Positions 1,307 through 28,498 of a DNA stretch of 40,000 nucleotides are shown here, one piece after another. The DNA comes from Methanohalophilus halophilus (GTDB lineage Archaea > Halobacteriota > Methanosarcinia > Methanosarcinales > Methanosarcinaceae), in NCBI RefSeq assembly GCF_001889405.1, contig NZ_CP017921.1:222057-262056 (forward strand). The letters run 5' to 3'. The notes below the pieces were generated by a model, which saw nothing but the letters and a program-made list of their open reading frames with translations, did not search any database and was not told the DNA's origin. Each line of letters begins with the position of its first letter. Position 1 is the first letter of the stretch. The position numbers and the translations under genes are program-made.

Positions 1307-4063
1307 ATGAGCCACAATCAAAAACCCGAACAAGTAGCCAGAGATCTTATAGATAAAAAGTTGGATGATTCGGGCTGGGCTGTGCAGGATAAGAATCGGC
1401 TCGACTGGAACGCTTCGACCGGTGTTGCGATAAAGGAATACCAGACCGAGGTGGGACCTGCAGACTATGTACTTTTTGTGAATCAGAAGCCTGTCGGAGT
1501 TATTGAAGCCAAAAGGGAAGAGGAAGGTCACCACCTTACTGTTGTTGAAGAGCAGTCAGCTGAATATGCTACGAGCAAGTTGAAGTACCTCAATAATGAA
1601 CCACTTCCTTTTGTGTATGAAAGTACGGGGAAAGTTACAAGATATACTGATTATCGGGACCCAAAGCCAAGATCCAGGCCTGCTTTCTCATTTCATCGTC
1701 CGGAAACATTTCTGCATTATCTCAAACAGGAGAAGAGTTTAAGGGAAAGACTCCTTGAAATGCCCGATTTTAAAACAGATGGATTACGTGATTGCCAGAT
1801 TCGGGCCATTTACAATCTTGAAGAATCTTTTAAAGAAAACCGTCCCCGTGCTCTGGTGCAGATGGCTACAGGATCGGGAAAAACCTATACTGCCATCACG
1901 TTCATTTACAGATTGCTGAAGTTTGCCGATGCTAAGAAAATACTTTTCCTTGTGGATACACGTAACCTGGGAGAACAGGCTGAACAGGAATTCATGGCCT
2001 ATGTACCCAATGATGATAACCGCAAATTTACCGAACTCTATAATGTCCAGCGCCTGACTTCCAATTATATTTCCTCGGATAGCCAGGTGTGCATCTCCAC
2101 TATACAGAGACTTTATTCCATACTGAAAGGTGAAGAACTGGACGAGGAATCAGAAGAGGAAAATCCGGCTGAAAAAGAGTGGAAACCAAAAGAACCCCTG
2201 CCGGTTGTATATAATGAGAATGTTCCCATAGAAGAATTTGACTTCGTGGTTATCGATGAGTGTCATCGCTCCATCTACAATCTGTGGCAGCAGGTGCTTG
2301 ATTACTTTGATGCTTTCCTGATCGGCCTGACGGCTACACCAGATAAACGTACCTTTGCTTTTTTCAATGAGAATGTGGTGAGCGAGTACAGTCATGAGGA
2401 AGCCGTGGCAGACGGGGTGAATGTGGGTTATGAGGTTTATACGATTGAGACCGAGATCACCAAAAACGGAGCAGAGATCAAGGCCGAGGAGTTTGTCGAT
2501 AAACGTGAGAAACTGTCCCGCAAAAAACGCTGGGAGCAGCTTGATGAAGATTTCACATATACTTCAAATAAACTGGATCGTGATGTGGTTAATCCCAGCC
2601 AGATAAGAAATGTGATTCGCACTTTCAAGAATAAACTTCCCGAGATTTTCCCGGGCAGAAAAGAGTTACCCAAGACCCTGATCTTTGCCAAGACGGACAG
2701 CCATGCGGATGATATTATCCAGATCGTGCGAGAAGAGTTCGGAGAGGGGAATGCTTTCTGCAAGAAGGTGACGTACAAGGTGGATGAAGACCCGAAATCC
2801 GTCCTGTCCCAGTTCAGGAATGATTACAATCCCAGAATAGCGGTTACTGTGGACATGATTGCTACCGGCACGGATGTCAAGCCGCTGGAATGCCTTATGT
2901 TCATGAGGGATGTGAAGAGCCGCAATTACTTCGAGCAGATGAAGGGACGCGGTACACGCACCCTGGATTTTGATGATTTGCAGAAGGTGACTCCCTCGTC
3001 AATCTCGGCCAAGACGCATTTTGTGATCGTGGATGCTGTGGGTGTTACCAAATCCATGAAGACCGACAGCCGGCCTCTGGAGCGCAAGAAGGGCATTCCT
3101 ATGAAGGATCTGCTTGGAGCGGTCACCTTCGGAGCAGAGGATGAGGACGTTTATGTTTCTTTGGCCAACCGGCTGGCAAGATTGGAAAAACAGATTACAC
3201 CACAGGAGCGGGAAACCTTTGCCGAGAAGACTGGCGGGAAAGAAATCAATGAGGCCATTAAGGATTTGCTCAATGCCCACAACCCGGATGTAATCGAGGC
3301 AAAGACGCAAATGATTCAGACAGAAGAGCCGGAAATGTCTGAAAATGAGGCCAGAAGGAAGGCACGGGAGAATTTATTCAGCACTGCAAGGGCTACCTTT
3401 ACCGGCCAGTTGAATGAGTATCTGGAAAATGTGCGCAAGGTCCATGAACAGATTATCGATACGGTAAATACGGATACAATCCTGAGAGCGGAATGGGACG
3501 AGGATGCTGTTATCAGGGCTGATGAGGTGGTAAGTGATTTCAAAACCTATCTGGAGGCAAACCGGGAGGAGATCACGGCCCTGAAGATTTTCTATAACCA
3601 GCCCTATCAGCGCAGGGATGTCACTTTCAGGATGATCAAGGATGTGCTGGAAAAACTAAAAGCTGAGAAGCCCTATCTGGCTCCGTTGAGGGTCTGGCAG
3701 GCCTACGAGCAGCTGGAGGAGGTCAACGGGAATTCCCCGAAGAACGAACTCACAGCCCTGATCTCCCTGATCCGCAGGGTTACCGAGATAGACCCGGTAC
3801 TGACTTCCTATGACTTAACCGTAAGCAGGAATTTCCAGAACTGGGTATTCGATAAGCAGGCCGGTACCCTGAAATTCAATGAAGACCAGATGGGCTGGCT
3901 GCGAATGATCAGGGATTACGTGGCTACCAGTTTCCATCTGGAAATCGATGACCTGGATTATCCTCCGTTCGATGCACTGGGAGGACGTGGCCGGATGTAC
4001 CAGCTCTTCGGAAATGAGATGAACACGATGATTGATGAATTGAATGAGGCACTGGCGGTTTGA
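1307..4063 (+). CDS. hsdR: Type I restriction enzyme R subunit (HsdR)
   Basis: 918-aa ORF. It has an N-terminal nuclease region (DKKLDDSGWAV ... VIEAKRE), SF2 helicase motif I (QMATGSGKT), motif II (VIDECHR), later helicase motifs (TATP, QMKGRGTR) and a long helical C-terminal domain typical of EcoEI-like HsdR. It lies in an operon with hsdS and hsdM. Confidence 0.95.
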   Translation: MSHNQKPEQVARDLIDKKLDDSGWAVQDKNRLDWNASTGVAIKEYQTEVGPADYVLFVNQKPVGVIEAKREEEGHHLTVVEEQSAEYATSKLKYLNNEPLPFVYESTGKVTRYTDYRDPKPRSRPAFSFHRPETFLHYLKQEKSLRERLLEMPDFKTDGLRDCQIRAIYNLEESFKENRPRALVQMATGSGKTYTAITFIYRLLKFADAKKILFLVDTRNLGEQAEQEFMAYVPNDDNRKFTELYNVQRLTSNYISSDSQVCISTIQRLYSILKGEELDEESEEENPAEKEWKPKEPLPVVYNENVPIEEFDFVVIDECHRSIYNLWQQVLDYFDAFLIGLTATPDKRTFAFFNENVVSEYSHEEAVADGVNVGYEVYTIETEITKNGAEIKAEEFVDKREKLSRKKRWEQLDEDFTYTSNKLDRDVVNPSQIRNVIRTFKNKLPEIFPGRKELPKTLIFAKTDSHADDIIQIVREEFGEGNAFCKKVTYKVDEDPKSVLSQFRNDYNPRIAVTVDMIATGTDVKPLECLMFMRDVKSRNYFEQMKGRGTRTLDFDDLQKVTPSSISAKTHFVIVDAVGVTKSMKTDSRPLERKKGIPMKDLLGAVTFGAEDEDVYVSLANRLARLEKQITPQERETFAEKTGGKEINEAIKDLLNAHNPDVIEAKTQMIQTEEPEMSENEARRKARENLFSTARATFTGQLNEYLENVRKVHEQIIDTVNTDTILRAEWDEDAVIRADEVVSDFKTYLEANREEITALKIFYNQPYQRRDVTFRMIKDVLEKLKAEKPYLAPLRVWQAYEQLEEVNGNSPKNELTALISLIRRVTEIDPVLTSYDLTVSRNFQNWVFDKQAGTLKFNEDQMGWLRMIRDYVATSFHLEIDDLDYPPFDALGGRGRMYQLFGNEMNTMIDELNEALAV

Positions 4064-4084: not shown

Positions 4085-5587
4085 ATGAAGTTGTGTGATG
4101 GCATGAAAATTCTATATGATACTAATATTTTGATTCACATACAGGACCCGAAAATTCTTTCTCCAGATCTTCAAGAGTTACTTGCACTAATCAGAGAACA
4201 TAGTCATCAAGAGGTTATTCATCCTGCTTCTCTCAAGGATATAGAAAATGATAATGACGCTGAAAGAAGAGAGATGATTCTATCAAAACTTCATGGTTAT
4301 CCAATACTACCATCACCACCTCAACCAAATGATTCATTTGTGTCTTTGGTAGGCACACCTTCAAATTCACATGACATAAATGATAACGAAATACTGTATT
4401 CACTTTATAAAGATCTCGTAGATTTTATTATTACAGAAGATAAAGGAATACGGAGAAAAGCATTCCGACTGGATGTTGACGATCGCGTTTTTTCTATCTC
4501 TTCAGCACTTGACTATTTCAAAAGATTATATAAAAGGTACGAACCCAAACATACATTGTTAAAGCAATTATATGCTCATGAAATTGACATTGATCAACCC
4601 TTTTTTGATTCTCTAAAAAGAGATTATACCAATTTTCAGCAGTGGTGGACGGAAAAATGTGTGAAACAAAGTCGTAAATGTTGGATATATGAAGAGGAAG
4701 GGGAAATAAAGGGATTTCTGATGCTCAAAGAGGAAACTGAAGCAATAGACACATATCCTCCTCAACCTATTAAATCTCGGGTCAAAATAACAACTTTAAA
4801 AGTAGATTTGTCCGGTTCTAAAATGGGAGAACTGTTTCTAAAAATAGCATTTCAATACTGCATAAATAACAATTTCTTTGAGATATACCTCACCCATTTT
4901 GAAACAAACGATGATTCTCTAGTATATGTAATTGGAAATTATGGTTTTGAGAACATTGGAAAGAGAACCTCCAATGGTGAAGATGTATATTTAAAAAAAT
5001 TCAAAGTGGAAGACACAGGGTTAGAACCTCTTACGATTGCCAATCGATATTATCCATGTTTTAAAGATGATGAAAACATCAAAAAATTTATCATTCCAAT
5101 CCAACCAGACTATCACGATACTCTTTTTCCTGATTGTTCCAGAAGACAGTTGACTTTTGATGACTATACAAAAATAAACGTTCCTGGAAACGCAATTAAA
5201 AAAGCCTATTTGTCGTCCTCAAGAATAACAAAAATAACTCCGGGAAGTATAGTTCTGTTCTATCGCTCTAGAGATCAAAAAGCAATTACAGCTGTAGGTG
5301 TGGTCGATCAAGATCCAATTAGAACAACAGACCCCGCAGAACTGAAAAGAATTGTGGGAAAAAGAAGTGTGTATTCCGATGAAGAACTCATGGGATGGAC
5401 AAAGAAAAACGTATTTGTGATTCCATTTAAACACCATTTATATTTACCAAATCCCTTAAACTTAAACTATTTGAAGGAAAAAGGTATTCTTAAGAGCCAC
5501 CCCCAATCAATAACAGAAATAAACCATGAACGATATGTAGCCCTAAAAAGTGGTGGCAAACTCGATGAACGTTTTACTGTCAATTAA
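4085..5587 (+). CDS. PIN - GNAT acetyltransferase - PUA-like (EVE/ASCH-like) multidomain protein embedded in the type I R-M operon
   Basis: 500-aa ORF between hsdR and hsdS. The N-terminus has PIN-like acidic motifs (ILYDTNILI, DNEILY, ITEDKG). The middle looks like a GNAT fold (GELFLKIAFQYCINNNFFEIYLTHF ... NYGFENIGKR). The C-terminus has a beta-barrel-like signature (PGSIVLFYRSRDQKAITAVGVVD) reminiscent of EVE/ASCH PUA-like domains. The true start may be the second Met at 4103. Domain calls are motif-based. Confidence 0.6.
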   Translation: MKLCDGMKILYDTNILIHIQDPKILSPDLQELLALIREHSHQEVIHPASLKDIENDNDAERREMILSKLHGYPILPSPPQPNDSFVSLVGTPSNSHDINDNEILYSLYKDLVDFIITEDKGIRRKAFRLDVDDRVFSISSALDYFKRLYKRYEPKHTLLKQLYAHEIDIDQPFFDSLKRDYTNFQQWWTEKCVKQSRKCWIYEEEGEIKGFLMLKEETEAIDTYPPQPIKSRVKITTLKVDLSGSKMGELFLKIAFQYCINNNFFEIYLTHFETNDDSLVYVIGNYGFENIGKRTSNGEDVYLKKFKVEDTGLEPLTIANRYYPCFKDDENIKKFIIPIQPDYHDTLFPDCSRRQLTFDDYTKINVPGNAIKKAYLSSSRITKITPGSIVLFYRSRDQKAITAVGVVDQDPIRTTDPAELKRIVGKRSVYSDEELMGWTKKNVFVIPFKHHLYLPNPLNLNYLKEKGILKSHPQSITEINHERYVALKSGGKLDERFTVN

Positions 5588-7550
5588 ACCAGAATATGTT
5601 GATGAAATCCTAAAAGGAAAAAAGAAATTCGAGTTCAGGAAGTCCATTTTTAAAAGAAGAGATATCACCAAAGTCTTCATTTATTCAAGTTCACCAGTCA
5701 AAAAAATTGTTGCATCATTTGAAATTGCCGGCATCATCGAAGATTATCCCGAAAATATATGGGATCAATGCCATGAATATGGAGGTATTACCAAAAACGA
5801 TTTTTTTGACTATTTCAGTAATACTCAAATTGGTTATGCAATCAAGATTTGCAATCTCCATGAGTTCTCCAAACCAATCGATCCCTATCTGCTAAAAAAA
5901 GACTTCAGGCCACCTCAATCTTATTATTATCTGCCTTTAGATTATTTCAGAGATTATGAACCAGTATTAATGGAATCTGGTAACGAGTATCGTACTGAAA
6001 TGGACAGCAAATTAGATACGCAAAAAAACATGCTGAATAAGAATATTTTAAAATTTGAGGAGAAGTACGGGTGGAAAACAGTTCGTTTAGGTGATTTTGC
6101 CATATATAAAAAAGGAAAAAAACCAAAAAAACAACAATCAGAAGGGTCTGATGTATTCAAATATCCATATATCAATATCAGAGCTTTTGATAAAGGGGAA
6201 ATAAAATATTATACTGATGGAGAGAATTGTGTAATATGTGAAGAAGATGACCTAGTAATGGTTTGGGATGGGTCTCGTAGTGGTTATGTTGGAAAGGCAA
6301 TAAAAGGTGCATTAGGTAGCACCTTAATGCGTCTCAAGATCCAAGCTACAGAAAATAAATTTGCTTATTATTTTCTGAAATCTAAATATCTTGAAATTAA
6401 TACAAGAACAAAGGGAACAGGCACACCTCATGTTGACCCTGCTATCCTGTGGAATTATCAATTTCCCTTACCACCCCTCCCCGAACAACGCGCCATCGTT
6501 TCCAAAATCGAGCAACTCTTCAGCGAACTGGACAACGGCATAGCCAACCTCAAAAAGGCACAGGAGCAACTCAAAGTGTACCGGCAGGCGGTGCTGAAGA
6601 AGGCATTTGAGGGAGAACTTACGCGAGAGTGGCGACAGCAGCAGACTGACCTGCCGGATGCGGAGGAATTGTTGGAGCAGATTCGAAAGGAGAGGGAAGA
6701 AAGCTACAACAGGAAACTGGATGAATGGAAAGCGGCGGTTAAAGAGTGGGAAGATGGTGGAAAGAAAGAGAAGAAGCCTTCCAAACCAAAAATGAGCAAA
6801 GAAAACAATCTCCTATCTGAAAGTAAAATAAGTAACTTATCCAATTTACCAAAAAAATGGACATGGACAAAGATAAAGGAAATTTCAATTGTAGGAACTG
6901 GAATCACACCTCTAAAAAAAAGACGGGATTTCTACGAAAATGGAACAATTCCTTGGATTACTAGTGGAGCACTAAACAAATCCTATGTGAATCTACCATC
7001 TGGATACGTTACTGAAACTGCTTTAAATGAAACAAATCTGAAAATTTATCCTAAGCATACTCTACTTGTAGCTCTTTATGGAGAAGGAAAAACACGCGGT
7101 AAGTGCTCTGAATTGCTAATTGAAGCAACAACAAATCAAGCTATTGCTGCAATTGTTCAAGAAGGAACTGAAGAAAAAATAAGACCATATTTAAGATGGT
7201 TTTTGATGAAAAATTATGATGAAATTAGATTAAAATCTTCTGGCGGAGTGCAACCAAATCTAAATTTAGGAATTATAGAAAATACATTCGTACCTCTTTG
7301 CCACTTAAATGAACAACAAGCCATCGTCTCCGAAATCGAAACCCGCCTTTCAGTTTGCGATAAAGTTGAGCAGGACATCGAGGAAAATCTGGAAAAGGCA
7401 GAAGCGCTGCGCCAGAGCATCCTGAAAAAGGCCTTTGAGGGGAAACTGCTCAACCAGCAGGAACTGGAAGAGGTACACAATGCACCGGACTGGGAACCTG
7501 CAGAGGTGCTGCTGGAGAAGGTACAGGCGGAGATAGCCGGTGCGAAATAA
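5550..7550 (+). CDS. hsdS: Type I R-M specificity subunit (HsdS) with N-terminal ASCH (PUA-like) domain fusion
   Basis: 666-aa ORF, longer than a typical HsdS. The first ~115 aa (MNVLLSIKPEYVDEILKGKKKFEFRK ... ) match the ASCH-domain N-terminal signature. Two TRDs follow, each ending in the conserved HsdS region (LPPLPEQRAIVSKIEQLF ... LKKAFEGELT and LCHLNEQQAIVSEIETRL ... LKKAFEGKLL). The start overlaps the upstream gene by 23-38 nt. The likely start is 5565. Confidence 0.88.
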   Translation: MVANSMNVLLSIKPEYVDEILKGKKKFEFRKSIFKRRDITKVFIYSSSPVKKIVASFEIAGIIEDYPENIWDQCHEYGGITKNDFFDYFSNTQIGYAIKICNLHEFSKPIDPYLLKKDFRPPQSYYYLPLDYFRDYEPVLMESGNEYRTEMDSKLDTQKNMLNKNILKFEEKYGWKTVRLGDFAIYKKGKKPKKQQSEGSDVFKYPYINIRAFDKGEIKYYTDGENCVICEEDDLVMVWDGSRSGYVGKAIKGALGSTLMRLKIQATENKFAYYFLKSKYLEINTRTKGTGTPHVDPAILWNYQFPLPPLPEQRAIVSKIEQLFSELDNGIANLKKAQEQLKVYRQAVLKKAFEGELTREWRQQQTDLPDAEELLEQIRKEREESYNRKLDEWKAAVKEWEDGGKKEKKPSKPKMSKENNLLSESKISNLSNLPKKWTWTKIKEISIVGTGITPLKKRRDFYENGTIPWITSGALNKSYVNLPSGYVTETALNETNLKIYPKHTLLVALYGEGKTRGKCSELLIEATTNQAIAAIVQEGTEEKIRPYLRWFLMKNYDEIRLKSSGGVQPNLNLGIIENTFVPLCHLNEQQAIVSEIETRLSVCDKVEQDIEENLEKAEALRQSILKKAFEGKLLNQQELEEVHNAPDWEPAEVLLEKVQAEIAGAK

Positions 7551-7586
7551 AACGTTACAACTAAAAACATTATCAAAGGTCCAACA

Positions 7587-9098
7587 ATGTCAGAAAACAC
7601 ATCATCCATAGTATCCAAGGTATGGAGCTTCTGCAACGTCCTGCGTGACGGCGGGGTCAGTTACGGAGATTATCTGGAGCAGCTGACCTATCTTATTTTC
7701 CTGAAGATGGCCAGTGAGTATAACAAGCCGCCCTATAACCGGGATATCGGGATTCCTGAAGAATACTCATGGGAGGAATTGAAACAGAAACGGGGTGCAG
7801 AACTGGACACTCATTACAGGAAGCTGCTTGAGGAAATGGGGAAAAAGCCCGGTATGCTCGGCCAGATCTTCCTTAAAGCCCAGAACAAGATCAGTGACCC
7901 GGCAATGCTGTACAAGGTCATTGATATGATCGATAAGGAAAGCTGGGTCATGATGGGTGTGGACACCAAGGGAGAGATCTACGAAGGGCTCTTGCAGAAG
8001 AATGCGGAAGATACCAAAAGCGGTGCAGGCCAGTATTTCACACCCCGGCCTCTCATCAAGGTCATGGTGGAATGCCTGCAGCCCGAACCCCTCAAAACCA
8101 TCGGAGATCCCTGCTGTGGTACCGGTGGGTTCTTCCTGGCAGCCTATGACTTCCTCAAAAACCGGGAAGGAGGATTGAACCGGGAACAGAGCCGCTTTTT
8201 GAAAGACAAAACGTTTTCAGGCAACGAAATCGTGGCCGGGACACGCAGGCTGGCACTGATGAATCTCTTTTTGCACAACATCGGTGAGATCGACGGAGAA
8301 CCGATGATCGACAACACCGATGCACTGATTGCCGACGCAGGTAAACGCTACGACTACGTCCTCACCAATCCCCCTTTTGGAAAGAAGAGCAGCATGACCT
8401 TCACAAACGAAGTCGGGGAAATCGAAAAGCAGGATCTCACCTATAACAGGCAGGATTTCTGGGTCACTACAAGTAACAAACAGCTCAACTTCTTGCAACA
8501 CATCCGCACCATGTTAAAAGCCGCAGGTCAGGCAGCAGTGGTCCTTCCTGACAATGTTTTGTTTGAAGGCGGAGTTGGTGAAACTGTACGCAAAAAACTT
8601 CTTGAAACCAGCGATCTGCATACCATACTGAGATTGCCTACAGGCATCTTCTATGCAAACGGTGTGAAAGCAAACGTGCTTTTCTTTGAAGCAAAAAAGG
8701 CTGCTAAAGACCCCTGGACAAAAGAAGTCTGGATTTATGATTATCGTACCAATGTACATCATACCCTGAAAAAGAATCCGATGAAATACTCCGATCTTGA
8801 CGACTTCATCAGGTGCTATAATCCGGAAAACCGTTTCAACCGGGAAGAAACCTGGGGTGAAGACAATCCAGAGGGACGTTTCCGTAGATTCACCTACGAT
8901 GAAATTGTAGCACGGGACAAAACCAATCTGGATATATTCTGGCTCAAGGACGAAAGCCTCGCTGACCTTGACAACCTGCCTGAGCCTGACATTCTGGCAA
9001 ATGAAATTGTGGAGAATCTTGAATCAGCTCTTGAAAGCTTTCAGGAGATTATAACTACGGTTAATGTGCAGGATGAAAAACCAGATGAAGAGGGTTAA
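7587..9098 (+). CDS. hsdM: Type I R-M N6-adenine DNA methyltransferase subunit (HsdM)
   Basis: 503-aa ORF with an HsdM N-terminal domain (WSFCNVLRDGGVSYGDYLEQLTYLIFLKM), SAM motif I (GDPCCGTGGF) and catalytic motif IV (TNPPFG). Confidence 0.95.
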   Translation: MSENTSSIVSKVWSFCNVLRDGGVSYGDYLEQLTYLIFLKMASEYNKPPYNRDIGIPEEYSWEELKQKRGAELDTHYRKLLEEMGKKPGMLGQIFLKAQNKISDPAMLYKVIDMIDKESWVMMGVDTKGEIYEGLLQKNAEDTKSGAGQYFTPRPLIKVMVECLQPEPLKTIGDPCCGTGGFFLAAYDFLKNREGGLNREQSRFLKDKTFSGNEIVAGTRRLALMNLFLHNIGEIDGEPMIDNTDALIADAGKRYDYVLTNPPFGKKSSMTFTNEVGEIEKQDLTYNRQDFWVTTSNKQLNFLQHIRTMLKAAGQAAVVLPDNVLFEGGVGETVRKKLLETSDLHTILRLPTGIFYANGVKANVLFFEAKKAAKDPWTKEVWIYDYRTNVHHTLKKNPMKYSDLDDFIRCYNPENRFNREETWGEDNPEGRFRRFTYDEIVARDKTNLDIFWLKDESLADLDNLPEPDILANEIVENLESALESFQEIITTVNVQDEKPDEEG

Positions 9099-10365: not shown

Positions 10366-11967
10366 TCATTCATAATCAAAACTATAATAAATATATTCAC
10401 CATAGGGTTCGTCTCCATCTGAATTACCTTCTTCATCTTTTATTTCAATCGGTGTTAATTGCTTATCTTCATCATAAAACGAGATATCATTCTCCTTCAG
10501 AACACTGAAATAATCATCATTATCTAAAAGACCTGAATCATTTGGCGTAATCCATCCTTTCATTGTTGCTTCATAAGTCAACAACCACTTATTTTCGTAT
10601 AGTGATTCTGATGTTAGTTCATCAGCTAAAAAAGATGTATCTAAATCTGAATCAAGTAAATTTTTGTTTATCAGATCCAACACCAAAACCTGTGGAATAA
10701 CATCATTAGAACGAAGAATCGTATTCGCAAAATTTGCTGGGATTTTTATTTCAAATGTCTTAGCCATCCATAAAATCCATGAAAGTTCATAAGAATGCTT
10801 TTTGTAAAGATGTTGACCAAGTAATGTATGAATCAGATCTTTTATTTTGTTTTGGTTTTTAAATTCCTTATAATACAATAAAATTTCTATAATTGGTTTT
10901 ATTGTTTTTGCATCCAATAAAGTGCATTTAAATAATAGCGATTCAAACAAATCCCAATTTGATTCATAAATTTCATATTCTTTTATTCTTCTGATCGCAT
11001 ACTTAAGTACATGTTCACTTCTGTGTTCATCGAACAAATCAAAGGCCAAATTAAAATATTTCCAAATATCTTTTTCTTGCATGGATTCGTTTTTCCTTAA
11101 AGAAAAAGTACTTAGAGATAAAACCCATGGATCATCATAAGCCATTGGATAATGATTAATAATTGTTTTTTGTTCGTTTAAGACTAATTGATACTCATTT
11201 AAAATAGATTGTAAATAGACAATAAGGTTGTCAACATGATCTCTGTTTGACAAATAGAAGCAATAATCATCATAGTACCTATAACCCTTAAGATCAGGGA
11301 ATTCTTCTTTAAGTTTTTGATCTATTGCACAAAGTATAATTTCAGCAATAATGTGAGAATTATCAGGCCCGGTAGGAATTCCATTTGTTTGGCCTGACTG
11401 ACACGCTCTCATATATTTATCTAGTACATTGCCATAATATCTTTGGTAATCATTACGATTGTTTTTTGCTTCCTCTTTGGTATGCAATGCCCACGGAATT
11501 GAATGTGTGTAAATAGAAGGGTAAAACCAGGAAATATCTGTTTTTAGTTCAAACATTCTATCATAAGAACAAGTAATACATTTCTTCTTATATTGCTGAA
11601 ATGAGTTTAGAGTTTGTATCGAACGTTTATTTTTTGGATTTTCAAAACAATTTTCGACGGGCCTGCTTGTAGAAAGTTCTGATTTACTACAATGAGCTTT
11701 TATTTCTGCCCAATTATCAATTATGAATTTTGATAAATAAAATTGAGATATGGGGTTCACAATACTTAGTTTTCTTCTAATATGATTCTTTTTAGGAATC
11801 AAGTAATCCGTAAGTTGTGTATTTGGTATTTTAGGAACATCATTTCTAGATGTCGGATTCCATTGTGAATCAATTATTTGATGTTTGCTTGCAAAAGATT
11901 CTGTTGAAAATGCAGGAGGTAGTTCTTTTGGAAAATATCCATTTTCAAGTAAATTTTTAAGATTCAT
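10366..11967 (-). CDS. Reverse transcriptase of the defence-associated UG/Abi type (AbiK/Abi-P2-like architecture: RT domain + helical-repeat C-terminus)
   Basis: 533-aa ORF. It has RT motif A (KTDISWFYPSIYTHSIPWAL), a motif B-like segment (NGIPTGPDNSHIIAEIIL) and motif C YxDD (GYRYYDDYCFY). The N-terminal GYFPKELPPAF motif and the ~250-aa helical C-terminal region match non-LTR, non-group-II, non-retron 'Abi' RTs. No maturase/X domain or En domain is visible. Confidence 0.8.
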   Translation of the reverse strand: MNLKNLLENGYFPKELPPAFSTESFASKHQIIDSQWNPTSRNDVPKIPNTQLTDYLIPKKNHIRRKLSIVNPISQFYLSKFIIDNWAEIKAHCSKSELSTSRPVENCFENPKNKRSIQTLNSFQQYKKKCITCSYDRMFELKTDISWFYPSIYTHSIPWALHTKEEAKNNRNDYQRYYGNVLDKYMRACQSGQTNGIPTGPDNSHIIAEIILCAIDQKLKEEFPDLKGYRYYDDYCFYLSNRDHVDNLIVYLQSILNEYQLVLNEQKTIINHYPMAYDDPWVLSLSTFSLRKNESMQEKDIWKYFNLAFDLFDEHRSEHVLKYAIRRIKEYEIYESNWDLFESLLFKCTLLDAKTIKPIIEILLYYKEFKNQNKIKDLIHTLLGQHLYKKHSYELSWILWMAKTFEIKIPANFANTILRSNDVIPQVLVLDLINKNLLDSDLDTSFLADELTSESLYENKWLLTYEATMKGWITPNDSGLLDNDDYFSVLKENDISFYDEDKQLTPIEIKDEEGNSDGDEPYGEYIYYSFDYE

Positions 11968-12112
11968 TGTGAAGTTTATACTATCGTATCAACATTTAAA
12001 TTTTTGTATTCATTTCAAAAAATTTTGCCGAATTCTAGTGTACTTATAACTAAAAAGAATAGGGCAGTATATAGTTAATAATAAAAAAAGCAAACACTTA
12101 GAAATTGTTTAT

Positions 12113-12587
12113 ATGACTTTACATTATGAGATAATTGCCGAAGAAAACATGTTGAAAATATTCCAGCCTTTATGCAATAACAAGATTGACTGCCACTACT
12201 TCCAATGTACTGGATAAATGCAAAGGTATTAATTATAACAAAGAACGGGAAGGACAGACCAAGCCATTAAGCAATACGATTCTTGAGTATGTGAATCATC
12301 CATAACATAAGTTTGAGGATTATATTGGTGTTCTTGAAAGGAAGCATATTGATATTGATGGTTTCGTGTATATTGGCAAAGAGGCCAATGAGATTGATGA
12401 GCAAACTATGGACGTTTCAAGGCCACAGAAATTCTTGAATAAGGGATATGTTATGCAGAAGATACTTGATTAATCTCAAAAACAGGATGAGGAATGGGGA
12501 GTAGATAGAAAGACGTTTCAGAGAATCAAGAAGAGGATAATTGAGAATAGTGACATTAAATTGAATACTGTTGCTGTAAAAAACTAA
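12113..12587 (+). pseudogene. Casposon PolB C-terminal fragment (frameshifted, internally deleted)
   Basis: Translations across frames give TLHYEIIAEE, SLYAITRLTATTSNVLDK, KPLSNTILEYVNHP*HKF and RKHIDIDGFVYIGKEANEIDEQTMDVSRPQKF. These are collinear with residues ~655-888 of the intact PolB at 21018-23684 (KLHYGIISEE, SLYAISQLTVSTSNVLDR, KPLSNTILEYIDHPEHKF, RKHIDIDGFVYIGKEANDIDEQELDVVRPQKF). The fragment contains stops, frameshifts and a large internal deletion. Confidence 0.85.
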
Positions 12588-12656
12588 CTTCATCTTTACT
12601 TAGTTAAAGTTAGTAATAAGAAAACGTTTTCTAATGTTAGAGATAATAAAAAAACT

Positions 12657-13532
12657 ATGACGCGGCTCAAAGAAAACACTATTAACCAATTATCACGCTT
12701 GATTTGTGGTGAGGATTTTGATTTTTTACCGTATCGCAAATCATCTCAATTAACTGATTTTTTTCAAGAGCTTGGTTTTGACTATACTCATGATGGATCT
12801 ACCCGAAGATATTGGGTAAGAGACGTGTTAAGCGAAATAAACACCGAAACACCTTCAGATTCCGTATTTCCGTCTCCAGAAATAATTGCTGTAATTGAAC
12901 ACATATTAAATCCAGTGAATTTTCTTGATCTTCCTGATTCTGAAGAAAAACAAAATTTAGGCATTGAACGTGTAAATAAGCTGTTATCTTTACAAGACTT
13001 GTTTGTTGAAAAAGAAGAAAACGGTGCTGTTCAACTTCATTCTAGAAAAGGTGACTTTGTATCTACATCAGTAAATAGGGATGAGAAAAAAAGAGTGATG
13101 ACTTTTTCTCCTTCTGTTTTTGAATTGCCTAAAGGTTCCACAATGAAAAACTGCGTTTCCATAATGATGCCTTTTTCGAAAGAATTTGATAATGTATATT
13201 CCGCAATAAAAGCAGCCTGTGTTAGCGAAGGAATACCCTTTCACAGAGCTGATGATTTCTGGAAAAATAGTGTCATAATTCAAGATATTTTTGAACTAAT
13301 ATGCCGTTCATCAATTGTTATTGTTGATTTTTCAAATAGAAATGAAAATGTATTTTATGAAGCTGGTATTGCCCATACTTTAGGAAAACATGTTATACCA
13401 ATAACTCAAAGTATCGACAGTATACCTTTTGATTTGAGACATCATCGGCATATAGTATATCTAAACAATGGCGAGGGTTTGAGAGGGTTAGAAAAAAAGT
13501 TGATTGACCGGCTAGCTTCTCTAAAAGAATAA
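12657..13532 (+). CDS. Two-domain protein: helical N-terminal domain + C-terminal TIR-like / nucleoside 2-deoxyribosyltransferase-like Rossmannoid domain
   Basis: 291-aa ORF. The C-terminal ~130 aa show the pattern VSIMMPFSKEFDNVY..I......G.PFHRADD...........I..SSIVIVDFSNRNENVFYEAGIAHTLGKHVIPI....D.IPFDL. This pattern is typical of TIR-like/deoxyribosyltransferase-like domains, with the conserved Glu in YEAG. Confidence 0.55.
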   Translation: MTRLKENTINQLSRLICGEDFDFLPYRKSSQLTDFFQELGFDYTHDGSTRRYWVRDVLSEINTETPSDSVFPSPEIIAVIEHILNPVNFLDLPDSEEKQNLGIERVNKLLSLQDLFVEKEENGAVQLHSRKGDFVSTSVNRDEKKRVMTFSPSVFELPKGSTMKNCVSIMMPFSKEFDNVYSAIKAACVSEGIPFHRADDFWKNSVIIQDIFELICRSSIVIVDFSNRNENVFYEAGIAHTLGKHVIPITQSIDSIPFDLRHHRHIVYLNNGEGLRGLEKKLIDRLASLKE

Positions 13533-14176: not shown

Positions 14177-15025
14177 TCAAATATGCTTATAAAGACCCAT
14201 TTTAATCTTCCCACCTTCACCGAATTCAAGCTCTGAAAAACTAACTCCTTCAAGAAAGGTCATATCTGAATCTTCATAGCGGATTATATCTGAAATCGGG
14301 AGCTTTTTTAGTTCCTTCCACAAATGAACTTCAGCAGTAAAACCTTTTAACTGATACATTTCAGTTTCAGAAATCTCCATTTTATAGATTTGGTCTTTAT
14401 CAGCAAATGCAACTTTCTTTTGAATTCGAATTCCATCTTCTGGAATATCTTTGAATATTTCACTTTGTTTTACAATTACTTCTTGATAGAACAGTTCGTT
14501 CAAAGATAACTTTTCATTATTGGACATGAATTTTTCTTCATCACTTTCAAATTTAATATTATTACCATTATAATCAACTAATTCAAAAGTAAGTATTTTT
14601 ATAATTTCATATTGCTTATGTATTACTGGTAGACAATCACCTAAAAACCAAGAATGGATATCTTCTTTGCCGATTTGACTTAACACTCGTGTTTCAATTC
14701 CATAATGTTTTGCCGTTGTTTTTGCTGGTTCTGTAAAATCGTTAGATGAAACAGCTATTACTTTTTGAACGTTGAGATTTTGACACTTTGTTGCTAATTG
14801 CTCAATCCACATTGAATCCTGTTTAGTATTTCGATCTCTGCATTCTATGATTATTGTTAAAGGTATGGAGCCAATGTTTGCTTTAATTGAGATATCAACT
14901 TCTCTTTGCTGCCCAGTAATTTTGTCGATTAGAAAATCTGGAGAGGTAATTTCATATTCGTCTTTTGTTAATATTTTATGTAGCAGAGAAACCGTTTCTT
15001 CTAATTCTTTCCCTTTTCGTGCCAT
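14177..15025 (-). CDS. Restriction-endonuclease-fold (Mrr-cat-like) protein with unknown C-terminal domain
   Basis: 282-aa ORF. The N-terminus reads GKELEETVSLLHKIL ... QREVDISIKA ... TIIIECRDRNTKQ ... VIAVSSNDFTEPAKTTAKHYGIE, which fits the D...(D/E)xK nuclease core of Mrr-type enzymes. The C-terminal ~140 aa are unassigned. Confidence 0.55.
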   Translation of the reverse strand: MARKGKELEETVSLLHKILTKDEYEITSPDFLIDKITGQQREVDISIKANIGSIPLTIIIECRDRNTKQDSMWIEQLATKCQNLNVQKVIAVSSNDFTEPAKTTAKHYGIETRVLSQIGKEDIHSWFLGDCLPVIHKQYEIIKILTFELVDYNGNNIKFESDEEKFMSNNEKLSLNELFYQEVIVKQSEIFKDIPEDGIRIQKKVAFADKDQIYKMEISETEMYQLKGFTAEVHLWKELKKLPISDIIRYEDSDMTFLEGVSFSELEFGEGGKIKMGLYKHI

Positions 15026-16076: not shown

Positions 16077-16664
16077 TTAAATATTAACAGATCCCAATTG
16101 TTCTTTATCTATATATTCACATTTCTCAAAATTACTAACTAATTGATTTATATTGTCTTTCCATTGTTTTAGATCTATCGAAGATTGATCTAAGGATTCA
16201 ATACTTTTTTTAATAGAAATTTCTAATTCAGAGACACTCTGAAAAATATCATTTATCTCGCGGGTTGATAAGAAATAAGGATTACGCTTAGATTTTTGCA
16301 TCTTGCCAATTTCCCGCAAGCCATTTTCACAGTGTACTATATTTTCTTCAGGTGATATTTCAATCAAAGAAAATATTTCATTAATTTCTGGAATATGATT
16401 AAGTAATTTAGCAGATCTTTGATATTTTTCTTTTTGGTCAATAAGCATTCTTTTATATATTTCCATAGGATCGTGTCTGATTTCTAGCATGGATTCTTCA
16501 TCGAATTTTCCAGAAGATAAAGCAAGTGCTTTGTTTGCCTTTTCCACACTTTGGGCAAAGAAAAAGATTGATTGTGGATAACATTTATTTTCATATAATA
16601 CAACTGAAGATTTTAAATCAGATTTTGCGAGTTTTACAAATTCTTTTACATATTTCATACTCAT
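16077..16664 (-). CDS. HEPN domain protein
   Basis: 195-aa all-helical ORF. The N-terminal signature AKSDLKSSVVLYENKCYPQSIFFFAQSVEKANKALAL is the classic HEPN helix 1-2 pattern (A..DL..A........y.....a.Q..EKa.KA). Confidence 0.65.
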   Translation of the reverse strand: MSMKYVKEFVKLAKSDLKSSVVLYENKCYPQSIFFFAQSVEKANKALALSSGKFDEESMLEIRHDPMEIYKRMLIDQKEKYQRSAKLLNHIPEINEIFSLIEISPEENIVHCENGLREIGKMQKSKRNPYFLSTREINDIFQSVSELEISIKKSIESLDQSSIDLKQWKDNINQLVSNFEKCEYIDKEQLGSVNI

Positions 16665-16958: not shown

Positions 16959-19223
16959 TTGAATAGCATGGGCACATATAAAAAAGAGACGCATAGCAAA
17001 GACTTATATGAGCTATATAAGCATGCAGAGAAAAACACAAAATCCGATTTCATTTCTATTTTTCGATGGTTGCGTAATCAGAATCAAATACTTGGCATAA
17101 ACGATTTACTCAAACTTCAACAGTATAATTCTCCTAACTATGGACATTGGGAAGTACCACTTTCAGTTATCCAATTATACAATATATTGCTTAATTCGAG
17201 AAAGTCTAAAAATATTCTTGATCCAGTAGGGAAATTAGGTTTGTTAGGGGGCATAATCTCAGAAAATGAAAATGTTCAAAATGTCGACATTGTAAGCAGT
17301 TTGCATGAATCTGAAGAAATAATACAATCAGTAAATATGCCAAAAGTTTCGCTTACTATTGGAAATATTATTGATCTCAAAGATAATTTAAAAGATAACT
17401 ACGATGCAATAATAGGCATACCACCAATAAATAACAAGGGGGATGTCAATAATAATTTAGTGGAAACTGCAAAAATGTTGTCCAAGGAAGGAATAATTGC
17501 TTTTGTAGTACCACCTCGCATTGCTTGGGATAAAAGCAAAAAATCAATAAAAGTGTCTCTAGAAAACAACGGATTATACCTGTCAGCATTATTGCAATTC
17601 CGTCCGGGAACATTTACTACAACAAATATACCTTTTTATCTTGCAATTTTTGAAAAAGTCAATCATGATACTTTGTTCGTAGGGGAAGTTCCTGAAAAAT
17701 ATGATGAATATGATGAATTGATAAAATGCTTTTCAAAAAGAAAAGAGGGAGAAACTATAAATCAAGGAAGATTGGTAGACCCCAATAATTTTAATGGGAT
17801 CAAATCTCTCAAAGCAAAAGAAAGAGCAAAAAAACTTGCTTCAGAAAGAGGACTTAAACCCATTCCTTTTGATAAGGTAGTTCACACAATAAATACTCCT
17901 AAAAAGAGAGGAAAAGATTTTGAAAGATTTGATGAACACCCAGATGCGGTTTATTTGCCTCAAATGGCAACAACAGAAGCAAAAACTCATCAAAACGATC
18001 TATCTCCGAAATTGAAATCATATTTGCAACTGATAGTCAATCATGATGTTGTTTTACCTGAATATTTAGCTGAATGGCTTAATACAACATTGGGTATTGC
18101 CTTTCGGGAATCAGCAATGCAAGGAATAACTATACCCAGAATAAATAAGAGCAATCTTCTATTAAGTAACCTTTACTTGCCTTCTGTTATAGATCAGCGT
18201 AAGGCATTAGATGCTCTTCTTTCAATTCAAGAAATGAAGTCTGATCTAGATGAGCTTGGGTCCAAAATATGGTATCAACCTTTAAATGTGTCAGAGGTCA
18301 TAACATCTTTAGAAAAAATTAATAGAGAGGAAGTATTTGGCGATTGGATAGAATCTCTTCCATACCCCCTCGCTTCAATTCTTAGATCATATGATACAGT
18401 AGACCAAACAGACAAAGACAAATATGAACGGCTCTTGCTTTTTTATGAAGGATTTGCTGAATTTTGCGCAACGGTGCATATTAGTGCATTTAAGAAACAG
18501 CCAGCTATTTGGGAGCCATTGAAAAATAAAATAAAACAAGTAATGGCTGAGAATAATTTTTCATTTGAAAAACCAACTTTTGGTTTGTGGGCCTCTATAA
18601 CAAGTATATTGGCGAAAGAATTACGTTCAATGATTAATGGAAAACAAGATGATAAAGATGCTACAAATGCACTTTATGAAACAGCTGATTTAGAACCATT
18701 AGAAATATTGTCATCCAAATCTTTAGTTAATTTAATAAACGAAACTAATAAAAAACGCAATGATTGGAGTGGTCACACAGGGGCTGTTTCCCAAAAAGAA
18801 GCTCGTGAAAGACATGACCACCTGAAAAACCAACTATCAAATTTGCATAAAATAATAGGTGATCTCTTCCAACAATATAAGCTTGTGGAGGCCGAGCCAT
18901 CAGGAATTGATGCTTTGACAGAGTCAAAGTTTAAGTGTAAAGTTAAATTAGTAATGGGTTCAAATCCTCTTCTTGAACGTCAAACATTGCAATTGAGTAT
19001 GACGTTAATTACAGGGTCATTATATATGTATAACATTGGAAATGATAGGGTTCTTGAACTGGTCCCATTTATTCAGGTCACTGAATCTCCACAATCTGCT
19101 AGTTACTTCTATAATAGAGTGGAAAAAGAAGGGTTACGCCTTGTTTCTTATCAAGTTATTAATGAATCAGAAATATTTAGAAAAAATCAGTACCTAGAGG
19201 ATTTGATAAAAAGTTTTACTTAA
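16959..19223 (+). CDS. Fusion protein: degenerate N6-MTase-like domain + HsdS-like TRD + C-terminal helical domain with HEPN-like Rx5H motif
   Basis: 754-aa ORF (TTG at 16959, first ATG at 16968). It has a Rossmann-like ILDPVGKLGLLGG and an atypical motif IV, AIIGIPPIN (I instead of N/D/S before PP). An HsdS-like segment reads GITIPRINKSNLLLSNLYLPSVIDQRKALDALLSIQEM. The C-terminal helical region contains KKRNDWSGHTGAVSQKEARERH. Confidence 0.55.
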   Translation: MNSMGTYKKETHSKDLYELYKHAEKNTKSDFISIFRWLRNQNQILGINDLLKLQQYNSPNYGHWEVPLSVIQLYNILLNSRKSKNILDPVGKLGLLGGIISENENVQNVDIVSSLHESEEIIQSVNMPKVSLTIGNIIDLKDNLKDNYDAIIGIPPINNKGDVNNNLVETAKMLSKEGIIAFVVPPRIAWDKSKKSIKVSLENNGLYLSALLQFRPGTFTTTNIPFYLAIFEKVNHDTLFVGEVPEKYDEYDELIKCFSKRKEGETINQGRLVDPNNFNGIKSLKAKERAKKLASERGLKPIPFDKVVHTINTPKKRGKDFERFDEHPDAVYLPQMATTEAKTHQNDLSPKLKSYLQLIVNHDVVLPEYLAEWLNTTLGIAFRESAMQGITIPRINKSNLLLSNLYLPSVIDQRKALDALLSIQEMKSDLDELGSKIWYQPLNVSEVITSLEKINREEVFGDWIESLPYPLASILRSYDTVDQTDKDKYERLLLFYEGFAEFCATVHISAFKKQPAIWEPLKNKIKQVMAENNFSFEKPTFGLWASITSILAKELRSMINGKQDDKDATNALYETADLEPLEILSSKSLVNLINETNKKRNDWSGHTGAVSQKEARERHDHLKNQLSNLHKIIGDLFQQYKLVEAEPSGIDALTESKFKCKVKLVMGSNPLLERQTLQLSMTLITGSLYMYNIGNDRVLELVPFIQVTESPQSASYFYNRVEKEGLRLVSYQVINESEIFRKNQYLEDLIKSFT

Positions 19224-19587
19224 TGAAAGAAGGGAGTTATGAAGATTCTAACTATTACCAAATATAATATAAAAAGTACTCTTAGACAGTTTCCAAAAAA
19301 ACAATCATTAATGATGAAAATATATTCTTTTCATCAGCATTTCGAGTATCCATGCACAAAGTGATAAATGTATTTTGAGTAGTAGGTCCTTTCAAAAATA
19401 GATTAATGCAGTTTGGTCAAATGTTGCTTTTTATTAGTTAGTAAGTATAAAATACGAATTAATATAATTTTTTGGTGGTTGTATTTTTCAATTCTACCTA
19501 TAACCCCGATTTTATGTGTGAGTGATAAAATTCGAACCAAAACTTTCTAAAATTCTGAGTATCTTATTTTCAGGATACCTATATCCC

Positions 19588-19601
19588 AGAAAAATAGTGC
19601 G
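19588..19601. repeat. Target-site duplication copy 2 (agaaaaatagtgcg)
   Basis: Exact 14-bp repeat. It separates the right end of the non-autonomous element from the left TIR of the intact casposon. Confidence 0.85.
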
Positions 19602-19632
19602 GGGATATAGTTATCTCTAATTTTTTGTACGC
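19602..19632. repeat. Casposon left terminal inverted repeat
   Basis: See the casposon feature (19602-28529). This TIR matches the reverse complement of 28499-28529 at 30/31. Confidence 0.9.
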
Positions 19633-19845
19633 TAAGTATTTACAGACTTATTTAAATTAACTACTGGGTTAATCTTTTAAATTGAAACCCAGATAAATGT
19701 ACAGAACGTTCAATTCACATCTTCTTTTAAAAGAGTGTCACTTTTTCGCAAAAGGAACATTTTTATAATAAACGGTTTATGATCCATTATCATTATACTT
19801 TTTTATAAAATGATGTAATATATCATGTTAAATATAGTTTGATTA

Positions 19846-20787
19846 TTGGGTGGTATTATGTATTGCCATAATTGTGGTTCAGAAATAGATGATAATGATG
19901 CTGCATTTTGCTCAAAATGTGGAACTAAAATCAAAAAAATAGAAAAAGAAATATTGTCCTCTACACTTGATGTAAAAAATGAAGAAAGTAGGAAGGATGA
20001 ATCATATATTGAGTTAGATACAGCCAACCAAAATAACACATCTATTAAAAAAGAAAATCCAGATTCGTGGGTTTTTATAAAAATATGTGCATATATAATT
20101 TGTGCTGTGGTTATTTCTTCCTTATTTATAGGCCTGTATAATATTGGTAGTGATTTTTATGGGGGTGAGGGAGCGTTTGTACAAGGTGAAGGTGGAGAAG
20201 GATTCGTTGCTTCAAATTCTGATATTACCCATAGCTTAACACAAGAACAAAAAAACACTCAAATTTGTGAAGAAATTGTACAAAACTACTATGAAACCCA
20301 TACATACGTATCGGATGATGTTTTTGATTGCGATAACATGGCAATGGATGTTTGGAATTTAGTAGAAAGTAAAGGAATAAATGCTGAAATTGCCGTGGGT
20401 AATGTAGATATGAAGGATGCAAATTTAGAAGATATCAATCATGCTTGGGTAATAGCAGAAGTTTCACCACAAAATTGGGTAGCTATAGAATGTACCAGTG
20501 GTTATCTTACATATGATGATGTGTATTATTCGGGTTGGTTCTTTGACAACCCTAAAAACTATCAAAGTTTTTTAAATGTATATACCACTTGGGAATATAA
20601 ATATCAAGAATATGAAAATTATAGATTATATTATAATGAATTGGTTGAACAGTTTAATGAGGCTGATGCCTATGAGCAAGCCTCACTAAGAAGTGGTCTT
20701 GAAATTGCAAGAGAAAATCTTCATCAAAAAGAAAGAGATTTTTTACAGGCTAAAACCGAATTAAATGCATTATTAGAATATGGGTAA
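19846..20787 (+). CDS. Zinc-ribbon / TM / transglutaminase-like cysteine-protease-fold protein (casposon cargo)
   Basis: 313-aa ORF whose likely true start is the ATG at 19858 (MYCHNCGSEIDDNDAAFCSKCG zinc ribbon). It has one TM helix (WVFIKICAYIICAVVISSLFIGLY). A Cys...His...Glu/Asp arrangement (FDCDNMAMDVWNLVESKGINAEIAVG ... INHAWVIAEV ... WVAIECTSG) resembles the transglutaminase-like core. Confidence 0.6.
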   Translation: MGGIMYCHNCGSEIDDNDAAFCSKCGTKIKKIEKEILSSTLDVKNEESRKDESYIELDTANQNNTSIKKENPDSWVFIKICAYIICAVVISSLFIGLYNIGSDFYGGEGAFVQGEGGEGFVASNSDITHSLTQEQKNTQICEEIVQNYYETHTYVSDDVFDCDNMAMDVWNLVESKGINAEIAVGNVDMKDANLEDINHAWVIAEVSPQNWVAIECTSGYLTYDDVYYSGWFFDNPKNYQSFLNVYTTWEYKYQEYENYRLYYNELVEQFNEADAYEQASLRSGLEIARENLHQKERDFLQAKTELNALLEYG

Positions 20788-21017
20788 ATATCATTATGAA
20801 ATTGAATATATTTCAAAAACATCTTTCCAGAAAACTTCAAGGACTGCAACAATTAAAATTACAGTTTCATCGCGAAAAGCTTTATTGTTTAAATTATTGA
20901 TTTTTTCAAAATTTATTTCAAATGCTTTGTTAATATCTTGTATTCATGGATTTTATCATTTTGAGACATAAACAAAATAATGTATGTCAACACTTATTGT
21001 TTTATTGATTCAGAGCT

Positions 21018-23684: not shown

Positions 23685-24018
23685 GTTTCATCAACTCATG
23701 TCCATAACTGAGCAACTGATCCCCTATACCCCTGAGTAATGCACCAACTGAGATAAACCAAAATCCCCTCTGTTCAATAGGTTTGGCCTTTTTTGACCTT
23801 TTTTTAGGACTTACCTTGTTCTGTTCTGCTGTAGTTTTGAAATGGCAGCTCTTGCATAGAGGAATTGTTTCATCAGAATTGCATCTACCATAAACATGAT
23901 GCATCTCTATGACAGAAAGATCATCCTCTCCACATTCAACACAACAAAGAGATGTTTGCTTGTTTCTCTTCTGCTTCCTTGTAGCCTTTAGATATGTTTC
24001 TTTATCCATCTGTATCAC
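23677..24018 (-). CDS. HNH endonuclease
   Basis: 113-aa ORF with CCVECGEDDLSVIEMHHV ... TIPLCKSCHFKT (HNH/zinc-finger signature). It overlaps the PolB start by 8 nt, which suggests translational coupling. Confidence 0.85.
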   Translation of the reverse strand: MIQMDKETYLKATRKQKRNKQTSLCCVECGEDDLSVIEMHHVYGRCNSDETIPLCKSCHFKTTAEQNKVSPKKRSKKAKPIEQRGFWFISVGALLRGIGDQLLSYGHELMKHD

Positions 24019-24023
24019 CTCCT

Positions 24024-24665: not shown

Positions 24666-24805
24666 TATTTCTCAGCCTCCCAGAGTTTCAGTAATGCTAT
24701 CCTGATAACTTCAGCCTGAGAGCATCCAAACTTATCTGACAACTGTACAAGTGTCTCCTTGAGATAAGGAGAAAGTGTTGTTATTATTCTTTCACTTTCA
24801 TTCAT
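24665..24805 (-). CDS. Small ribbon-helix-helix (CopG-like) protein, absent from the supplied ORF track
   Basis: Manual translation of the minus strand gives MNESERIITTLSPYLKETLVQLSDKFGCSQAEVIRIALLKLWEAEK* (46 aa). This is a beta-strand followed by two helices with the typical S..EVIR.AL pattern. Its TAA overlaps the ATG of the next gene by 1 nt (ATAATG). Confidence 0.5.
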   Translation of the reverse strand: MNESERIITTLSPYLKETLVQLSDKFGCSQAEVIRIALLKLWEAEK

Positions 24806-24939
24806 TGGTTTTCACCAATAGACTGTATGTACAGCCATACTGATATTAACAATGATATTGATTTTAATACTAAAATGAGCATTAATGATATAAACCATAA
24901 CAAATATGATATTATATTAGATAGTGAGAGGTAGAAATA

Positions 24940-28435: not shown

Positions 28436-28498
28436 ATATTTTTAATATGTACTCCTAATATATATATTTTTTATATGCCCTAGATTTTACATAAAATA

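Follow-up and report, generated by a model that had tools for sequence, protein, structure and literature searches.

The operon studied here, in a 40,000-nt stretch of Methanohalophilus halophilus DNA (contig NZ_CP017921.1, positions 222,057 to 262,056; hereafter the window), is best explained as a type I restriction-modification (R-M) operon, hsdR-hsdS-hsdM, in which the known two-gene candidate defence module PDC-M11 occupies, through insertion, the place between hsdR and hsdS, and in which the ASCH partner of that module became the N-terminal domain of HsdS in a Methanosarcinaceae lineage. A reading of the sequence alone had described a 500-aa open reading frame (ORF) combining PIN, GNAT and PUA-like domains, overlapped by an ORF that begins with an ASCH domain and continues into HsdS. 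We establish here the identities of these domains, the conservation of the gene pair and the conservation of the in-frame fusion, and weigh what the fused module may do.

The observation is confirmed, but the architecture was already known. The locus belongs to PDC-M11, one of the phage defence candidate systems of PADLOC (Payne et al. 2024, preprint), a series of 145 candidates defined by their embedding in BREX, DISARM or type I R-M systems, and to the (PIN)-GNAT-EVE plus ASCH operons. Bell, Wolf and Koonin (BMC Biol 2020; PMC7641849) described the PIN-GNAT-EVE class, reported a second PUA-like protein, ASCH, in almost all of its operons, linked these operons to type I R-M and noted the ASCH-HsdS fusion in Methanohalophilus; from comparative genomics they assigned the modules a toxin-antitoxin-like or defence function. 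The earlier description of the operon and the idea of DNA-base acetylation are credited in that article to Iyer et al. 2013. Since the architecture is both published and catalogued, the present finding is a correct re-discovery, and the proposals of the sequence-only reading, a modification-sensing layer or a fail-safe effector, are plausible and essentially the hypotheses of PMC7641849. What is added here is the occurrence of the fusion in four named genera of Methanosarcinaceae, the turnover of its target recognition domains (TRDs), the lack of an internal AUG in some fusions, the invariance of the ASCH octapeptide and a sequence link to the ASCH protein of Zymomonas mobilis (ZmASCH).

An in-frame fusion of ASCH to HsdS

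ASCH and HsdS lie in a single frame of a 666-aa ORF, with zero stop codons between them. The HsdS part contains two Pfam Methylase_S stretches, is matched by the PADLOC Specificity_I profile over residues 173-663 and aligns end to end, from its first residues on, with ordinary HsdS proteins, so that the earlier description of a stop-free ORF running from ASCH into a two-TRD HsdS holds up. A sequencing frameshift can be excluded, because the identical fusion protein is found on 3 contigs and a 73%-identical one on 29; recurrence in other genomes and contigs likewise rules out an artefactual fusion. Furthermore, a contig whose PIN-GNAT-EVE protein (hereafter the A protein) is 93% identical to that of the window has a 662-aa ASCH-HsdS gene at the same place. 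With the full-length protein as query we recovered another 12 distinct fusions, all below 90% identity (628-684 aa, 99-100% query coverage), which together with the window's own form a set of 13; a query of ASCH plus linker listed short proteins only and no fusion, a limit of that search. Those with a named source come from Methanohalophilus, Methanococcoides seepicolus, Methanosarcina siciliae and Methanolobus psychrotolerans; the others are metagenome sequences. Three more fused loci (L004-L006) came from a genome scan. The sequence-only reading had named an unseen frameshift, together with absence of the pair elsewhere, as grounds for abandoning the fusion, and had asked whether such fusions recur: the frame is continuous, the pair is conserved, and the fusion was found in 13 distinct versions.

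Among the 13 fusions, mean pairwise identity is 81% for ASCH and 81-82% for the conserved regions of HsdS; it is 47% for TRD1, 30% for TRD2 and 32% for the linker, which is 38-70 aa long. The in-frame ASCH-HsdS fusion is therefore genuine and maintained, and its TRDs are shuffled. The linker has no Met in 4 of the 13, where a separate, AUG-started HsdS is consequently impossible, and we reject for this clade the idea that HsdS is made separately from a conserved internal AUG; a separate HsdS arising from a non-AUG start or by proteolysis is possible. All fusions fall within one cassette clade, with A-protein identity of at least 62%. In one member, Methanolobus sp. T82-4, a frameshift interrupts the fusion and leaves a 189-aa ASCH protein that includes the first ~30 residues of HsdS. 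No free ASCH copy was found beside the fused loci examined. Four HsdS homologues of 664-716 aa (P0261, P0262, P0283 and P0289) cover only 70-74% of the fusion query; they may be extended, at the N-terminus or internally, by something other than ASCH.

Conservation of the ASCH domain

The assignment of the start of the ORF to ASCH, made in the sequence-only reading, is borne out by three matches. Pfam ASCH (PF04266) is found on residues 10-77 of the 666-aa ORF with 23.4 bits (cut-off 21.2), the PADLOC profile PDC-M11B matches residues 3-129 with an E-value of 2.9e-49, and ZmASCH (5GUS/5GUQ) is, by sequence, the closest solved relative, with an E-value of 1.9e-11 over residues 4-123. The domain has the ASCH octapeptide GxKxxExR, with G18/K20/E23/R25 at the key positions, which places it in the GKER subgroup. 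We examined conservation in 79 sequences, 78 from the fetched loci and that of the window. K20, E23, R25 and Y40 are each invariant (79/79), W66 and Y83 are fully or almost so, and P117-Q118-S119 is highly conserved, S119 being kept in 73 sequences (92%). Y40, K46 and S119 align with Y47, K53 and S128 of ZmASCH, whose mutants have reduced nucleic-acid binding and, in the case of Y47F, also reduced RNA cleavage. K20 and E23 are the counterparts of the published Lys/Glu dyad required for deacetylation of N4-acetylcytidine (ac4C) in tRNA. The earlier account of ASCH as a domain that reads modified bases needs a correction: ASCH is not only a reader, as the residues on which catalysis depends in characterised ASCH enzymes show no variation in this family.

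In other lineages, fusions join this ASCH type to HNH, to pPIWI-associated nuclease domains, to RHH, to HATPase_c_4 plus wHTH, to DUF5655 and to GNAT-EVE. The last is a 565-aa ASCH-GNAT-EVE protein from a Methanolobus metagenome-assembled genome (P0371, L021:11505-13202), encoded downstream of a PIN-GNAT-EVE gene; in it, the ASCH partner is joined to another copy of the effector architecture, one that lacks PIN.

The PIN-GNAT-EVE protein and its domains

The gene upstream of the fusion encodes 500 aa as first listed, or 494 aa from the start assigned below. The PADLOC profile PDC-M11A covers it at full length (E 3.5e-152; residues 7-499 against positions 1-500 of 501), and a homologue search returned 1155 proteins of ~490-500 aa. 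A Pfam scan of the 500-aa protein gave no match and NCBIfam nothing usable, and the domain calls were consequently taken from structure prediction. An AlphaFold2 (AF2) model was built with 25 homologues as input (mean predicted local distance difference test score, pLDDT, 81.5) and compared with the PDB by Foldseek; the N-terminal 150 residues were also modelled alone from database sequences (pLDDT 88).

All three domains proposed from the sequence were recovered. The N-terminal model matches mainly PIN domains (VapC, SSO1118, the RNA-free RNase P 7OG5, SMG6, Utp24 and PAE0151), with template modelling (TM) scores of 0.5-0.63 and a best E-value of 2e-3, and D6, D94 and D113 are invariant in 25 close and 28 diverse homologues. 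A sequence profile of this region gave E-values of 0.07 or worse against the PDB, with 3 of 6 matches PIN-like; sequence evidence being marginal, the PIN call relies on fold and motif. The middle domain has a GNAT fold, matching Nat enzymes, PaiA and TacT/AtaT at E-values of ~1e-5; the family sequence profile matches Naa50 (E 4e-4), and PF00583 is annotated on some homologues. The C-terminal barrel is closest to ZmASCH 5GUQ (E 7e-7, TM(target) 0.74-0.78) and then to the nuclear magnetic resonance structure 2GBS (Rpa0253). Pfam EVE (PF01878) is recorded on several homologues and is below threshold on the window's own protein.

The gene pair across genomes

Across 80 genome loci that represent many phyla of archaea and bacteria, an ASCH gene lies directly downstream of the PIN-GNAT-EVE gene, on the same strand, in 73, and the two genes overlap by exactly 23 nt in 36 of these. 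ASCH is unfused to HsdS in 70 of the 73, nearly all of these being free proteins of 125-170 aa. At the 69 loci outside the Methanosarcinaceae the neighbours are heterogeneous and include many housekeeping genes, and a few are N6_Mtase, ResIII, GmrSD, Methylase_S, Fic or DUF1016/YhcG. The PIN-GNAT-PUA and ASCH genes are thus a self-contained pair, and in the window an embedded passenger module rather than an intrinsic part of R-M. Of the earlier claim that two modification-reader domains are wired into the type I system, the embedding stands at this locus; a role as intrinsic R-M components does not, as the pair occurs mostly outside R-M operons.

Related operons also hold extra genes elsewhere. 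The interval between hsdS and hsdM contains a GmrSD_N protein in one (L001:7131-9365) and an SLFN_AlbA_2/HATPase_c_4 protein in Methanolobus sp. T82-4 (L002), which has in addition a gene for a 449-aa protein with no Pfam match between hsdR and the PIN-GNAT-EVE gene; the two extra genes of L002 are at 11223-12707 and 6512-7861. It seems that this operon is a hotspot for the embedding of modules.

Gene layout and the rest of the window

By Pfam and PADLOC, HsdR, HsdM and a two-TRD HsdS are encoded in one same-strand operon, as in type I R-M systems (Table 1). The ORF list gives the two genes between hsdR and hsdM as 4085-5587 (+, 500 aa) and 5550-7550 (+, 666 aa). From alignment with homologues we set the start of the PIN-GNAT-EVE gene at ATG 4103 (MKILYDTNIL) and that of the ASCH-HsdS gene at ATG 5565 (MNVLLSIKPEY), the latter giving 661 aa. 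The sequence GGTGG is found 8 nt 5' of the second ATG; given this position and the 23-nt overlap of the genes, translational coupling is likely. HsdR and HsdM are 97% identical to those of a metagenome contig with the same operon. The guanine-cytosine (GC) content is 31-39% in the cassette and 42-53% in hsdR and hsdM, which is consistent with the insertion of a foreign module.

Table 1. Features of the window, with the R-M operon and its embedded module first (positions are those of the window)
Feature	Position	Strand	Evidence
hsdR, type I restriction subunit (918 aa)	1307-4063	+	Pfam HSDR_N, ResIII, SWI2_SNF2, Helicase_C, EcoEI_R_C; PADLOC REase_I
PIN-GNAT-EVE protein (PADLOC PDC-M11A), 494 aa (alternative ATG 4085: 500 aa)	4103-5587	+	PDC-M11A profile, homologues, AF2 model
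PIN-like nuclease domain, aa 1-145	4103-4537	+	domain-only model and Foldseek; D6, D94, D113 invariant, T111 near-invariant
GNAT acetyltransferase domain, aa ~150-300	4550-5002	+	Foldseek, sequence profile; conserved R226..G238xKxG242ELxLK motif
C-terminal PUA-like (EVE/ASCH-type) beta-barrel, aa ~318-490, including PGSIVLFYRSRDQKAITAVGVVD	5054-5572	+	Foldseek
23-nt overlap between the end of the PIN-GNAT-EVE gene and the ATG of the ASCH-HsdS gene	5565-5587	+	sequence
ASCH domain (PDC-M11B), aa 1-130 of the fusion	5565-5954	+	PADLOC, Pfam ASCH, ZmASCH sequence match
Variable polar linker of 39 aa (other fusions: 38-70 aa)	5955-6071	+	alignment of fusions
HsdS proper: TRD1, central conserved region, TRD2, C-terminal conserved region	6072-7550	+	Pfam Methylase_S (two), PADLOC Specificity_I
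hsdM, type I methyltransferase (503 aa)	7587-9098	+	Pfam HsdM_N and N6_Mtase; PADLOC MTase_I, E 7.8e-197
DUF5655 protein (297 aa)	215-1108	-
Reverse transcriptase, defence-type (533 aa)	10366-11967	-	PADLOC Drt4 (E 2e-194), Drt6 (E 4e-173); Pfam RVT_1
Mrr_cat restriction-endonuclease-domain protein	14177-15025	-
HEPN-domain protein	16077-16664	-
754-aa protein	16959-19223	+	weak matches to mad2 methyltransferase and type I specificity models
Casposon-like element	19574-28546
Family-B DNA polymerase of the element	21018-23684	-	Pfam DNA_pol_B_2
Solitary Cas1 of the element	25848-27050	+	E 4.6e-68
33-nt terminal inverted repeats	19602-19634 / 28497-28529		97% complementary
31-nt flanking direct repeats	19574-19604 / 28516-28546
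tRNA-Leu	28539-28624	-
42-nt stretch of tRNA-Leu and its repeat	28583-28624 / 28720-28761		93% identity

A divergent DUF5655 gene lies directly upstream of hsdR, and the same domain is fused to this type of ASCH in another lineage (P0383), which hints at a recurrent link of DUF5655 with the PIN-GNAT-EVE plus ASCH module. Just downstream of the operon a low-GC (~30%) island holds the reverse transcriptase, the Mrr_cat and HEPN proteins and the 754-aa protein. The casposon-like element, of ~8.9 kb and 23-38% GC, encodes a DNA polymerase and Cas1, and its flanking direct repeats abut the 3' end of tRNA-Leu. Part of this tRNA gene is repeated 137 nt away and may be the remnant of an earlier integration at tRNA-Leu.

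Possible functions of the fused module

We tentatively favour, as a possibility that falls short of probable, a reading in which the 494-aa protein acts on RNA as an effector and is controlled by ASCH as its cognate partner, this control being tied to R-M through the fusion with HsdS. The effector would be aimed most likely at tRNA or aminoacyl-tRNA, with the PIN domain, whose acidic site is intact, as RNase, the GNAT domain as acyl-transferase, and the EVE-type barrel docking on a modified nucleotide. ASCH could exert control by binding the same nucleic acid or by reversing the acylation as an amidohydrolase. Judging from the alignments, the candidate catalytic and binding residues of both PIN and ASCH are intact. 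Because ASCH is covalently part of HsdS, control of the effector would depend on the integrity or abundance of the R-M complex, and the module would then provide a second line, abortive or back-up, for cases of failed or inhibited restriction, resembling PrrC-EcoprrI in logic and not in homology. A more specific form of this proposal seems improbable to us: ASCH held in intact M2S or R2M2S would neutralise the effector, by binding it or by enzymatically reversing its acylation, until the complex is broken up or sequestered by a viral anti-restriction protein, whereupon the released effector would acetylate and/or cleave tRNA and shut down translation; the whole would be an archaeal counterpart, with covalent wiring, to the PrrC-EcoprrI-Stp circuit.

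Several observations weigh against an RNA-directed effector under R-M control. An N6-methyltransferase-like or HsdR-like gene was found inside the 10-kb flanks of only ~25 of the 80 loci, a count that is a crude lower bound; most members of the family are not beside R-M genes, and R-M coupling is therefore not the general mode of action of the module. The GNAT fold matches have no power to separate tRNA-acetylating toxins from protein N-acetyltransferases. The fusion of this ASCH type to DNA-directed HNH, RHH, wHTH and pPIWI-associated nucleases in other lineages favours DNA over RNA as its ligand. ZmASCH is inactive on the ac4C nucleoside and causes no significant change of tRNA ac4C in vivo. 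According to PMC7641849 these modules are all experimentally uncharacterised. Finally, the HsdS fusion could be neutral.

The same fusion partners speak for another reading, which we consider rather unlikely although it has been stated explicitly for Methanohalophilus (PMC7641849): ASCH on HsdS, the DNA-recognition subunit, would bind a modified DNA base and target the type I complex by modification, and the PIN-GNAT-EVE protein would be an accessory recruited to the same nucleic acid. That ZmASCH binds ssDNA as well as ssRNA agrees with this. However, the two complete TRDs and the end-to-end alignment with ordinary HsdS imply that sequence specificity is already provided, ASCH is free of HsdS at all but three of the loci with the pair and usually has no R-M nearby, and the K/E/R octapeptide, invariant here, is what ASCH amidohydrolases use for catalysis.

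If the fusion is neutral, which we judge unlikely, the module would be independent of R-M and a passenger for co-transfer or co-expression; the fusion would have arisen once by loss of a stop codon and would persist by descent, the N-terminal extension of HsdS being tolerated. Its confinement to one cassette clade, the poorly conserved linker of variable length, the frameshift in Methanolobus sp. T82-4 and the lack of R-M neighbours for most family members are as such a history would leave them. Nevertheless, the fusion has been kept in four or more named genera although TRDs were exchanged extensively, and its ASCH part is conserved as much as the HsdS core. Furthermore, as the fused loci examined have no free ASCH copy beside them, ASCH function must there come from the fusion.

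Lastly, the two proteins might form an enzymatic toxin-antitoxin or marking system in which GNAT acylates a nucleobase or an aminoacyl moiety and ASCH, as an amidohydrolase, removes the mark, candidates for which are ac4C in tRNA, an acetylated DNA base (a proposal of Iyer et al. 2013, as conveyed by PMC7641849) and N-acetyl-aminoacyl-tRNA. The invariance of K20 and E23, the conserved acetyl-CoA-type motif in the GNAT domain of the partner protein and a 2026 preprint, which shows that many ASCH proteins use the same Lys/Glu dyad to remove the acetyl group of tRNA ac4C, point in this direction, but we hold it to be quite unlikely, given that ZmASCH, the closest characterised homologue, neither hydrolysed the ac4C nucleoside nor reduced tRNA ac4C in vivo and is reported instead as a weak Mg2+-dependent ssRNA nuclease, and that the PIN domain and the HsdS fusion are left without a role.

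An effector controlled through HsdS and the three alternatives to it are not mutually exclusive. Should the module prove to be a back-up effector or a modification-sensing layer, two immune layers would be physically coupled through one polypeptide, and the newly reported RNA-deacetylase chemistry of ASCH might be linked to antiviral defence. The remaining value of the locus is as a well-defined experimental target, the obligatory ASCH-HsdS fusion of Methanohalophilus, Methanosarcina and their relatives.

Comparison with known systems

The toxins of TacAT, AtaRT and ItaRT share with the window a GNAT fold and an overlapping two-gene arrangement. They are, however, single-domain proteins of ~160-175 aa with RHH/DUF1778 antitoxins encoded upstream, whereas the GNAT of the window is flanked by PIN and EVE domains, has as partner a downstream ASCH protein and scores no better against TacT/AtaT than against protein N-acetyltransferases. 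Membership of the TacT/AtaT group was rejected, GNAT being the middle domain of the 494-aa protein and no RHH/DUF1778 gene being present in the operon; membership of the VapBC family was rejected as well.

PrrC combines an ABC-ATPase-like part with an anticodon-nuclease domain. As in the window, the effector gene of PrrC-EcoprrI sits between type I R-M genes of its own strand, and PrrC is cited as almost exclusively embedded in such systems. It differs in being a single gene with no fused R-M subunit and no homology to the 494-aa protein, and its silencing by the R-M complex is experimentally shown, whereas analogous control in the window is conjectured. A PrrC-type assignment was rejected, the PADLOC scan of the 500-aa protein having returned PDC-M11A models only.

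Among ASCH proteins, the YqfB-type ac4C amidohydrolases share the fold and a Lys-containing octapeptide with the domain of the window, but membership was rejected, since the window has Glu (E23, the GKER variant) where YqfB has GK(T/S)R. ZmASCH shares the GKER octapeptide and the residues equivalent to its Y47, K53 and S128, and differs as a free protein of ~147 aa, unfused to HsdS. The closest system is PDC-M11 itself, which has the same three-domain protein, the same adjoining ASCH gene and the same association with type I R-M, with profiles that match at full length; the sole difference of the window locus is that its second protein runs on into HsdS.

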